Source of the DNA: an uncultured Opitutales bacterium | GTDB taxonomy: Bacteria > Verrucomicrobiota > Verrucomicrobiia > Opitutales > CAYWEO01 | NCBI GenBank assembly: GCA_964457855.1 | Contig: CAYWEO010000001.1 | Coordinates: 81,747 to 145,746 of the forward strand | Direction of reading: 5' to 3' | Length of the DNA stretch: 64,000 nt | Program-made: the position numbers and the translations under genes | In this document: in pieces, positions 13,773-15,718 of the stretch | Layout of the letters: every line of letters begins with the position of its first letter | How positions within the stretch are numbered: the stretch's first letter is position 1 | Notes under the pieces: generated by a model | The model's input: the letters and a program-made list of their open reading frames with translations, nothing else | The model's database searches: none | Told to the model about the DNA's origin: nothing

Positions 13773-15050
13773 ATGTGTTTGACGACAATTGCCGATGTGC
13801 ATGCAAGAGAAATTCTGGATTCGCGTGGAATTCCGACCGTTGAGGTTGAAGTTACGCTCGATTCGGGTGTTTACGGACGAGCCGCCGTTCCATCTGGGGC
13901 AAGTACGGGCGCGTGTGAAGCGCTGGAGCTGAGGGATTCCGAAGCCACAAAACGGTTTAACGGAAAGGGCGTTTTGTCGGCCGTTAACAACGTGAATGAG
14001 AAGATTTCGGACGCGTTGATGGGTTGTGACGCCACGGATCAGGTTGATATCGATAAAACGCTGATCGATCTCGATGGTACGGACAATAAAAGTTACCTGG
14101 GCGCCAACGCGATTCTCGGGGCTTCATTAGCTGTCGCTCATGCAGCTGCATCGGCCCTAGAGATGCCCTTGTTCCGCTATATTGGCGGCACAAACGCGAA
14201 GGTTCTGCCCGTTCCCATGATGAATGTCATCAACGGCGGTGCGCATTCGGATGCCCCAATCGATATCCAGGAGTTCATGATCGTTCCCAAAGGCGCGGAC
14301 AGTTTCCGTCACGCGATTCAGATGGGATCGGAAGTTTTCCAGGCCCTGAAAAAAGTTCTGAAAAAGAGTGGATTTTCAACAGCCGTCGGAGATGAGGGCG
14401 GATTTGCCCCGAATTTAGGCTCCAACGAGGAGGCCATCGAAGTCATCCTGAAGGCTATTCACGAGGCTGGTTACGTCCCAGGAAAGGACATTTGGATTGC
14501 CCTCGATGTCGCGGCATCGGAATTTTACGAAAACGGCAAGTATATCTTCAAAAAATCCGACAAATCCGTCAAAACGGCCGAAGAAATCGTCGATTTTTAC
14601 CGCATTTTGAAGTCCCGCTACCCAATCATCTCGATTGAAGATGGTTGCGCGGAAGATGATTGGGATGGCTGGAATTTGCTCACTCAGGCCCTCGGACGGA
14701 CGACACAACTCGTTGGTGACGATATCTTTGTGACGAATACAAAATTCCTCAAAAAGGGAATTGACCAGGGCATTGCCAATTCCATCCTCATCAAGGTCAA
14801 TCAGATCGGTACCCTCACGGAGACCCTCGATGCCATCCAGATGGCCCAGCGCGCTGGTTATACGACCATTATCTCCCACCGCTCCGGAGAGACGGAGGAC
14901 ACCACCATCGCCGACCTCGCCGTCGCCATGAACGTCGGCCAGATCAAGACAGGTTCCATGAGCCGCACAGACCGCATTTGCAAATACAACCAACTCCTCC
15001 GCATTGAGGAGACTCTCGGTAAGAATGCTATCTACGCCGGAAAATGCTAA
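13773..15050 (+). CDS. eno: enolase
   Basis: Full-length enolase ([34 protein letters not shown]). Confidence 0.95.
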
Positions 15051-15182
15051 GGACGGCGTCGATTTTGAGCGCTAGGGTTCCGTTACAGAAAAATTTCAAC
15101 CCCATCACGTATTTCAATACGCTCAGGGGTTGAAATTTTTCTGTAGCCGTCCCTATCATCTCAAACTTGAGGCCTTCCTTAG
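15047..15182 (+). repeat. F2 long-hairpin repeat, subtype b
   Basis: Flanks CTAAGGACGG/CCTTCCTTAG match at 9/10 positions, and the left flank includes the eno stop. Perfect 20-bp inner stem 15084-15103 / 15126-15145. Apex ATCACGTA-TTTCAA-TACGCTC. Confidence 0.9.
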
Positions 15183-15231
15183 TATTTCGGTTCTTTTTTT
15201 GCTTGGCTGCGTTGTGCCCCTTTGTTCAAAG

Positions 15232-15377
15232 ATGGACTGCTTCGATTTTGAGATCACGGGCAGGCGCGCGAGGTCGATTGGAGTGAGTGCCTCTGCTCCA
15301 CTCCAATCCCCTAATGCCTGAGATGGCATTGAGACAGATGCGCAACGAACCCGCCGCTCAAAATCGAAGCAGTCCAT
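15232..15377 (-). repeat. F2 long-hairpin repeat, subtype a with substituted apex
   Basis: Perfect 21-bp terminal inverted repeat ATGGACTGCTTCGATTTTGAG / CTCAAAATCGAAGCAGTCCAT. The centre carries a different 10-bp hairpin (GATTGGAGTG...CACTCCAATC). Confidence 0.9.
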
Positions 15378-15423
15378 ACTTTTCTGCTTTACATTTAACA
15401 CTTATTTTAGACAATATTTAACC

Positions 15424-15594
15424 ATGGCAAGAGAAACGATTATTTTGGAGTGTACGGAGGCGAGGAAGGAAGGGAGGCCGCCATCTCGTTACATGAGCAC
15501 GCGCAACAAGAAACTTCAGACCGAGAAGGTTGAGAAGAGGAAGTATAATTGGTTTTTGCGGAGGCATACCCTCCATCGTGAAATCAAGGACTAA
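15424..15594 (+). CDS. rpmG: 50S ribosomal protein L33 (Cys-poor form)
   Basis: 56-codon ORF below the track cut-off: MARETIILECTEARKEGRPPSRYMSTRNKKLQTEKVEKRKYNWFLRRHTLHREIKD. Only one of the four Zn-ribbon Cys positions is retained. Confidence 0.85.
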   Translation: MARETIILECTEARKEGRPPSRYMSTRNKKLQTEKVEKRKYNWFLRRHTLHREIKD

Positions 15595-15598
15595 AAAG

Positions 15599-15718
15599 AA
15601 GGGCTCCTGTTTGAGCGGCAAGTGCGTTGCGCATCGGATCTCGCTGCCATCACGTACGTTAGTACGCTCAGGCATCTTGTCCTCGCGCGCCTGCTTGTCA
15701 TCTCAAACGGGAGCCCTT
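15599..15718 (+). repeat. F2 long-hairpin repeat, subtype a
   Basis: Flanks AAGGGCTCCTGTTTGAG / CTCAAACGGGAGCCCTT match at 16/17 positions. Apex TCACGTAC-GTTA-GTACGCTC. Starts 4 nt after the rpmG stop. Confidence 0.9.

Follow-up and report, generated by a model that had tools for sequence, protein, structure and literature searches.

ERIC elements (also named IRU or RU-1), which were reportedly described by Sharples and Lloyd in 1990 and by Hulton and co-workers in 1991, are ~127 bp long and have been used in strain typing for 35 years; we know of no account of how they move or of why their core is conserved. In work reported by De Gregorio and co-workers in 2005, Yersinia ERICs that overlap or adjoin stop codons are said to share one orientation, in which the upstream transcript is reportedly destabilised in a translation-dependent manner through an RNase E site in the right arm. 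Three articles describe Yersinia ERICs as co-transcribed and as acting on the upstream mRNA in an orientation-dependent, RNase E-linked manner (PMC2229807, PMC10969869, PMC3184786, citing De Gregorio 2005) and place the RNase E site for this effect in the ERIC right arm (PMC2229807, PMC10969869), and one of them limits the host range of ERICs to Enterobacteriaceae and Vibrionaceae (PMC10969869, which cites Zo 2011). ERICs are further recognised by a TA target-site duplication, with 5′-TA-3′ at both termini (PMC2229807 table 1; PMC3184786). Here, ERICs were compared with F2, a family of repeats in 64,000 nt of contig CAYWEO010000001.1 (positions 81,747 to 145,746) from an uncultured Opitutales bacterium; this whole 64-kb stretch is referred to as the window.

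Self-comparison, blastn, profile searches and a structure model gave six full copies of F2 (A, B, C, E, G and H), one damaged copy (D) and four fragments in the window. With moderate confidence, F2 is interpreted as a set of short non-coding, probably non-autonomous mobile palindromic repeats that belong to the same superfamily as ERIC and form at least three subfamilies in a verrucomicrobial genome. Because of the profile and covariance-model tests, and because the conserved islands follow an equal order in all groups, we regard F2 on sequence grounds as a divergent member of the ERIC superfamily, similar at the superfamily level and not by close identity. An earlier note on this DNA had described F2 as subtypes that exchange whole helical arms while keeping their ends and an apical mini-hairpin; the observation held in part and its interpretation was partly supported. 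That description included neither the relation to ERIC nor the co-oriented docking at stop codons. The pattern is real and beyond chance, yet it marks an element of a kind already known. What is new here is the host (Verrucomicrobiota), the three arm subtypes in one genome and the wider reach of the family; some of the wider ERIC distribution may already be known.

Similarity of F2 to ERIC and to other repeats

An ERIC profile was built from ten enterobacterial ERICs, none of which was picked by the F2 pattern: the copy in the ybhI-ybhJ spacer of E. coli, directly past the ybhI stop, and nine from plasmid records of Salmonella, Proteus, Citrobacter, Lelliottia, Yersinia, Pantoea, Klebsiella and E. 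coli. Of 5426 complete E. coli genomes, 5424 contain the ERIC core at 100% identity, with a median of 5 places per genome. Searched against the window, the ERIC-only profile matched F2 copies only, on the correct strand and in register, with E-values of 5.8e-5 for copy E, 6.1e-4 for H (on the − strand), 3.3e-3 for G and 3.9e-3 for A. In 0.7 Mb of sequence, a reciprocal profile made from the six full window copies found ERIC loci (E = 2e-3 and 3e-3). A covariance model made exclusively from 30 Pseudomonas elements located beside nrdA matched all six full window copies over their full length (E = 6.8e-11 to 2.2e-8) and also found seven independent ERICs (E = 5.9e-5 to 0.03), with no match in 64 kb of unrelated loci. 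In a multiple alignment, the order of the islands was equal in all groups, and the elements formed a graded series from the E. coli ERIC through variants in Klebsiella and Cedecea to Marinicella and Pseudomonas, and from there to F2. The Cedecea element, whose apex is exactly that of F2, is identified unambiguously as an ERIC by the ERIC-only profile (E = 2.3e-21 over its full length).

Both ERIC and F2 are single long imperfect hairpins without an open reading frame (ORF) of their own, multi-copy and intergenic, and they are similar in size (~127 bp for ERIC, 110–145 nt for F2, the latter matching a 128-position hairpin model over its full length). F2 resembles the ERIC consensus, including the inverted repeat of the central core, and the two share the order terminal stem, GCGTTGGC, variable helix, central core, variable helix, GCCGCCTT, terminal stem; the core reads CCCC-AGTCACTTAC-N4-GTAAGCTCCTGGGG in ERIC and CC-ATCACGTAC-N4-GTACGCTCAGG in F2. 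Matches with profiles and structure models were obtained in both directions, elements of both kinds lie next to stop codons in one preferred orientation, and internal insertions occur in some copies of each (an ERIC on a Salmonella plasmid; F2 copy D). F2 differs from ERIC at several positions of the core and at its termini (TTTGAG...CTCAAA, compared with TATACTC...GAGTATA in ERIC), lacks a consistent TA duplication, has outer stems that are specific to the copy or subfamily, and comprises three distinct arm subtypes in one genome. Its distribution also departs from the host range described for ERIC, with F2 in Verrucomicrobiota and relatives in Pseudomonas, Azotobacter and Marinicella.

Other described elements were less similar. 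REP, BIME and REPIN elements (associated with RAYT transposases) resemble F2 as intergenic palindromes at gene 3′ ends with proposed roles in mRNA stability and termination, but F2 is roughly four times their length, and its conservation lies in the apex and internal loops. REPs are 20–40-bp GC-rich stems tagged by GTAG or CGTC (PMC3733652). A REP or REPIN assignment was rejected: the F2 copies read have no GTAG or CGTC tag at their ends and are 110–145 nt long, and no transposase-like gene was present among the annotated neighbours. IS200/IS605- or REP-type ends, which need a GTAG-type tag or two subterminal hairpins, were likewise discarded, as neither is present in F2. Integron attC sites (RYYYAAC at the 5′ side, GTTRRRY at the 3′ side, variable centre) show the reverse arrangement, since in F2 the GTT island comes first, the GCC island last and the centre is most conserved. 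Retron msr/msd loci are single-copy with a reverse transcriptase, unlike F2, and RU-3 of E. coli is by its published sequence a BIME-like REP pair. Correia elements (NEMIS, of Neisseria), for which we know of no rule of docking at stop codons, are defined by 24–26-bp terminal repeats and an IHF site and not by a conserved apex, and no sequence relation to F2 was seen for them or for other miniature inverted-repeat transposable elements (RUP, RPE, YPAL). The likeness of these elements to F2 is that they are small non-coding inverted repeats, co-transcribed, with RNA hairpins acted on by RNases (PMC2229807).

Rfam gave no match at the gathering score in the window and eight related loci; at E-values up to 10, the window and relatives matched only generic microRNA-precursor hairpin models, far below the cut-offs. 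No tRNA or tmRNA was found by scanning, and a literature search with sequence strings returned primers only.

For relatives in other genomes, the apex ATCACGTA-N6-TACGCTCAGG was scanned in one genome per species, which gave at least 84 loci. Among the matches listed, most were in Pseudomonas, Stutzerimonas, Ectopseudomonas and Azotobacter, with one match per genome, and the others were in Marinicella, gammaproteobacterial metagenome-assembled genomes and Cedecea. Three loci (L032, L060 and L068) were chance matches of the apex inside genes. All remaining listed loci have the F2 layout: terminal stem ((C/T)TGAGCG ... CGCTCA(G/A)), island GCGTTG, lineage-specific helix, apex, complementary helix and island GCCGCCT(T/A)G. 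In nearly all genomes of the Pseudomonas group, the element lies ~10–20 nt past the stop of nrdA (ribonucleotide reductase) on the same strand (e.g., L022:6480–6592), and nrdB starts ~330 nt downstream of it, which places the element between the nrdA and nrdB cistrons; it is kept at this position in at least 70 species-level genomes of Pseudomonas, Stutzerimonas and Azotobacter. A metagenome scan with terminus and apex added four further members, whose arms differ again, and no match was found in a viral scan or in a plasmid blastn search with copy E.

A few loci showed additional features. At L022, a typical Pseudomonas REP lies beside the nrdA element and is distinct from it. In a gammaproteobacterial metagenome-assembled genome (L061:1918–2268) and in Marinicella (L081:3089–3215), the element directly follows the same gene (C-terminus ...GEIF*), and at the former locus a ~220-nt unit made up of the element and a conserved downstream stretch (CCGTCAGCGAGCTGACTCAA...CTCGTTGGCTTCGCCAACATCG) is tandemly duplicated.

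Copies, arm subtypes and fold of F2

The region 15047–15718, between eno (13773–15050), rpmG (15424–15594) and the next genes, contains three related elements, C, D and E. Copy C (15042–15187, + strand, subtype F2b; structure model E = 6.8e-11, full length) overlaps the eno stop codon (15048–15050) with its base and has inverted arms of 72 nt, an RNA fold of −77.6 kcal/mol (z-score −14.7) and an apex at 15102–15127 that reads CC-ATCACGTA-TTTCAA-TACGCTC-AGG. The junction between eno and copy C was reproduced in five independent assemblies of other sequencing runs, and therefore the element is not an assembly artefact; the assemblies break inside the repeat. Copy E (15595–15722, + strand, F2a; apex at 15647–15672) is an inverted repeat that starts 1 nt past the stop of rpmG (ribosomal protein L33) and folds at −69.2 kcal/mol (z-score −8.9; structure model E = 6.3e-10). 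The damaged copy D (15232–15377, − strand, F2a), between eno and rpmG, retains a perfect 21-nt terminal inverted repeat and gave a half-length profile match (E = 1.5e-5).

Of the remaining full copies, A (5547–5673, + strand, F2a; structure model E = 1.1e-8) overlaps the stop of yebC/pmpR (gene at 4826–5548) with its base, and B (10739–10865, + strand, F2b; structure model E = 2.2e-8) overlaps the 3′ end of rpmE2 (L31 type B, 10505–10762), with the rpmE2 stop TAG (10760–10762) inside the element (GAGCGCTAGGG). Copy G (18455–18574, + strand, F2a; structure model E = 1.7e-9) lies just past the stop of an NTP/NDP exchange transporter gene (16922–18454). Copy H (53922–54066, − strand, third subtype; structure model E = 1.6e-10), with inverted arms of 60 nt, is co-oriented with sua5/tsaC (54039–55049, − strand, named by a Pfam match of the ORF) and overlaps its 3′ end. 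Fragment F (15951–15981, − strand), found by blastn to copy ends, comprises an F2 left end (GTAAGGCCTCGATTTTGAGCGGCGAG when read on the − strand) and abuts the stop of a − strand ORF at 15971–16624. Blastn and sequence inspection also gave three right-arm fragments on the + strand: an H-type fragment at 10886–10915, an F2b-type fragment at 10941–10985 that is a copy of the right end of B with its flank, and the right two-thirds of an H-type element at 11002–11078, with a weak profile match at 11004–11057.

Two copies extend into annotated genes. Positions 10744–10762 of copy B supply the last codons and stop of rpmE2, and the outer stem of copy H (54039–54066) contains the last ~9 codons of sua5/tsaC, which are beyond the end of the Pfam domain match. 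For genome annotation, F2 explains repeat-induced contig breaks and, in this lineage, altered gene 3′ ends such as those of rpmE2 and sua5, which read into an element.

The arms that the earlier note quoted for F2a occur verbatim in copy G, to which copy E is 90% identical, and those quoted for F2b are present in copy C, including the perfect 20-bp helix TACAGAAAAATTTCAACCCC / GGGGTTGAAATTTTTCTGTA. A swap of whole arms was nonetheless an overstatement: F2a and F2b are 80% identical over 92 alignable columns, their left arms both carry a CGTT island and agree over much of the inner part, and both right arms carry a GCC island. The full copies share the termini TTTGAG/CTCAAA and the proposed common apex (ATCACGTA occurs four times in the window, compared with 0.76 expected), but the loop of four to six variable positions attributed to it does not occur. 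Spacing is fixed (TCACGTA-N6-TACGCTC) and always yields a 5-bp stem and a tetraloop; between F2a (CGTAC/GTACG) and F2b (CGTAT/ATACG) the closing pair is changed on both sides, and the loop has not lengthened. Copy H, described as an a/b chimera, does have outer arms of the F2a kind around an inner helix like that of F2b, but it is not a one-off and was assigned to a third subtype, since the fragments at 10886–10915 and 11002–11078 share its arm type. Nor does copy D carry a new hairpin at its apex: 16 nt were lost (ACGTACGTTAGTACGC, exactly the apical mini-hairpin), and alignment to copy G revealed a separate gain of ~40 nt (a 12-bp hairpin, roughly 15273–15312) in the right arm, 8 nt beyond the deletion. 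This insert had no second occurrence within the window. A parallel to the insertion in copy D was seen in a Salmonella IncC plasmid (L099; NZ_CP022063.1, 37426–37709), in which an ERIC beside ybtA has a 74-nt left-arm insertion between GCGTTGGCTAC and TCACTCACTCC; the same two-piece match occurs in ~170 Salmonella plasmid records.

All window copies are long imperfect inverted repeats with arms of 41–72 nt, minimum free energies of −52 to −81 kcal/mol and z-scores of −7.7 to −14.7, and none of 200 shuffled sequences folded as well. Among the Pseudomonas orthologues (n = 30), the consensus fold has 35 pairs, 18 of which show compensatory changes. When 24 elements from many taxa were aligned by fitting to the model, which makes covariation counts lean towards it, 87.6% of cells paired, compared with ~36% when partners were slid, and changes on both sides were found in 30 of 35 pairs. 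The six full window copies alone had compensated changes at 22 of the 35 pairs, such as GGCGAG:CTCGTC in G, GGCAAG:CTTGTC in E and GGCGGG:CCCGTC in D and H. In an ordinary MAFFT alignment, the apical 5-bp stem was paired in 26 of 26 sequences (as CGTAC/GTACG, CGTAT/ATACG, CGTAG/CTACG, CTTAC/GTAAG or CATAC/GTATG), with two of its five pairs changed on both sides. Across the superfamily, the only conserved columns were CGTTG on the left, TCAC-TAC...GTA-GCTC at the apex and GCCT on the right.

These patterns suggest that the helices may vary freely while they remain paired; the three islands (CGTTG, the apex TCACGTAC-N4-GTACGCTC, and GCCT) and the termini are kept. The proposal that conserved sites are joined by replaceable helices is thus upheld in essence and generalises across the relatives, with three islands plus termini in place of two sites; the term replaceable spacer is less apt than a description as helices that co-vary and are passed on within subfamilies. 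A host or mobilising factor presumably makes contact at the islands.

Position at stop codons and competing explanations

Seven of the eight window elements that have a left end abut or overlap the stop of a co-oriented gene: A at yebC, B at rpmE2, C at eno, E at rpmG, G at the NTP/NDP exchange transporter gene, H at sua5/tsaC on the − strand, and F at the − strand ORF that ends at 15971. The one exception is the damaged copy D, which points against its flanking genes and does not adjoin a stop codon. In 14 of 20 elements, drawn from many taxa, the left end lies within ~20 nt of the end of a long co-oriented ORF; the opposite arrangement was found once. F2 is thus dispersed, multi-copy, intergenic and held in one orientation at stop codons, as ERIC is, and its transcription within the units of its neighbours is predicted.

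Because the copies are in sense orientation, with the hairpin base at the stop codon or only a few bases from it, they are almost certainly transcribed as the start of the 3′ untranslated region (UTR) of the upstream gene. By analogy with ERIC, the most probable role of F2 is that of a co-transcribed hairpin with which the 3′ UTR begins, and the position of the hairpin base fits the Yersinia ERIC model. Judged from homology and position, the hairpin may influence what becomes of the mRNA at its 3′ end, whether by way of stability, of processing or of read-through into the gene that follows. The first dozen bases past the stop codon are covered by a ribosome as it terminates; where the hairpin base abuts that codon, the ribosome would melt the basal stem and so couple the effect to translation. 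Since the copies are docked co-oriented at stop codons, an RNA-level role in the 3′ UTR is favoured, and the docking points to such a role rather than to the generic scaffold holding two sites at a defined geometry that had been suggested.

Several results weigh against the interpretation of F2 as mobile, co-transcribed relatives of ERIC. F2 does not show the TA target duplication and TATAC-type ends of ERIC: only copy C was flanked by TA...TA, and the flanks of the maximal hairpins of A, D, E, G and H were not bracketed by TA, a test that is weak because copy-specific outer stems blur the element boundaries. No empty site was found among the nearest relatives (~75% RecA identity, no synteny) or in the same-species assemblies, which break inside the repeat. 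Direct similarity between ERIC and F2 in the profile search of the window is modest, and the F2b copies B and C, with E-values of 0.11 and 0.8 against the ERIC-only profile, are not significant alone. Most non-enterobacterial relatives came from the apex pattern, so their apex identity holds by construction, and the lean of the model-fitted covariation counts counts on the same side. Finally, the complement of the mRNA strand is the better folder in all 30 Pseudomonas elements, in 8 of 9 ERICs and in 5 of 6 other relatives, but in only 4 of 7 window copies, by a margin of 10–14 kcal/mol in Pseudomonas and the ERICs. This is in part because the apex internal loop, AUCA/CUCA on the sense strand, reads UGAG/UGAU on the complement and there forms tandem G-A pairs flanked by U-U and G-U, and in part because the variable Pseudomonas helices contain C-A/A-C mismatches on the sense strand. 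A tandem G-A apex and a better-folding complement are not what a purely sense-RNA function predicts.

The alternative that survives best, and that overlaps in part with the mobile ERIC-like interpretation, is that F2 and its relatives are a host-serving structured RNA module, a cis-regulatory 3′-UTR element or small RNA with a conserved protein-binding apex, that spread secondarily. It would account for the single orthologous copy right after nrdA, with its compensatory changes, in at least 70 species-level genomes, for the conservation of short unpaired islands across phyla, for the strict docking at stop codons and for the absence of a matching Rfam family. It does not readily account for the multiple copies in the window with their decayed fragments, nested damage and subfamilies, or for the absence of F2 from the 42 kb sampled from its nearest relatives, and the ERIC copy number, which ranges from ~20 to ~700 between genera (PMC10969869), is typical of mobile repeats; this alternative is considered possible but unlikely.

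An equally tentative suggestion is that the ERIC superfamily may represent an old structured module shared across phyla, one that invariably docks at stop codons in a single orientation and is more than a selfish repeat restricted to the enteric lineage. Its three conserved islands are unpaired, and one of them, the apical internal loop, has the tandem G-A motif on the complement. If so, a conserved trans-acting partner, or strand-specific insertion aimed at stop codons or terminators, would be implied, and the single-copy nrdA-nrdB element of Pseudomonas would be a domesticated instance. An ERIC relative thriving in a verrucomicrobium, together with single-copy relatives in Pseudomonas, extends the family well beyond its textbook range and offers a comparative handle in the form of co-varying helices set against fixed islands and fixed docking at stop codons, with P. 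stutzeri (nrdA-nrdB) and Yersinia as tractable hosts. Questions about mobilisation, the islands and the functional strand become easier to attack with this cross-phylum conservation and the nrdA-nrdB copy.

Action at the DNA level is improbable. Under this explanation, the hairpin would form in single-stranded DNA or as a cruciform, the apex would be a site for a recombinase, transposase or nucleoid protein, and the arms would be kept complementary by templated correction within the palindrome and not by selection on RNA. The better folding of the complement in most relatives is in line with it, as are the 38 cells with C-A/A-C mismatches, compared with 2 with G-U, on the sense strand of the variable Pseudomonas helices, the mirrored two-base change on both arms between copies B and C, and the complementary outer stem that every copy has of its own. 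The wobble-pair signals on the functional strand are, however, conflicting: one U-G pair adjoining the GTTG island never varies on the sense strand, which favours that strand, and the window copies have no strand bias in wobble pairs. Moreover, orientation follows the gene and not the direction of replication, with H and F on the − strand beside − strand genes, and no linked transposase or recombinase gene was present in the window or at any locus examined.

Slightly more doubtful still is the explanation that the copies are no more than intrinsic terminators of the usual kind, or elements inserted into the loops of terminators, with the rest incidental. Its best case is copy E, whose outer stem (GAAGGGCTCC/GGAGCCCTTC) and the T-rich tail after it resemble an rpmG terminator with the element in its loop; without the element, the sequence would be a textbook terminator (GAAGGGCTCC-TGCG-GGAGCCCTTCTTTGGTCTTTT). 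T-rich sequence also follows C and D, but G, B and the Pseudomonas copies have no T tail, and a simple terminator scan gives the long F2 hairpins no score. The outer stems also fall into loose, subfamily-like groups, with AAGGACGGCCTCGA shared by C, F and fragment 3, AC.GCTTCGA by A and D, and GGCGA by B and G, suggesting that they belong to the element.

Convergence of an unrelated repeat family on an ERIC-like design, with the apex match due to coincidence or shared function, is the least probable explanation, since the matches are full-length and agree in order and strand over three separate islands, the E. coli ERIC is connected to F2 by a graded series and docking at stop codons is common to both, even though the ERIC-to-F2 profile E-values are only 1e-3 to 1e-5, the termini differ (TTTGAG/CTCAAA compared with TATAC.../...GTATA) and the host belongs to another phylum.

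Host and other repeats in the window

The best named relatives of the window enolase and RecA are from Puniceicoccales, Opitutales and other Verrucomicrobiota, at 70–76% identity; because of these relatives and the gene content, the host is a verrucomicrobium and not a gammaproteobacterium. An enolase match named “Candidatus Kuenenia” was discarded as a relative, as it is a 635-amino-acid protein in an unrelated gene context. No F2 copy was found in ~42 kb from the nearest relatives, which is too little sequence to judge how recent F2 is in the lineage. The window encodes the NTP/NDP exchange (ATP:ADP antiporter-type) transporter at 16922–18454, a TyrP-like aromatic amino acid permease at 11123–12337 and an SNF2-family helicase at 7763–10132; in a verrucomicrobial background, these hint at a host-associated lifestyle.

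The F2 host genome is unusually rich in intergenic palindromes. A second repeat family consists of near-perfect 48–52-nt palindromes (TCGGAAGGCATTTT...AAAATGCCTTCCGA) with a variable centre, located at 10200–10250, 15827–15874, 18665–18715, 24072–24122, 32000–32051, 53830–53876 and 61426–61476; several are close to F2 (after E, after G and beside H), and one scores as terminator-like. Members of a third palindromic family, (T)CCGGAGGGGG(T/C)GTTTTTTGCAAAAA..CCCCCTCCGG(A), lie at 25761–25800, 32075–32112, 48245–48284 and 61364–61401, of which the copies at 32075 and 61364 adjoin members of the second family. An AT-rich composite repeat (CTTTTCTTTTGAAGGTTCGGAAA...) was found in intergenic positions at 15740–15960, 48358–48405 and 55087–55134, sometimes flanking the TCGGAAGGCATTTT palindromes.

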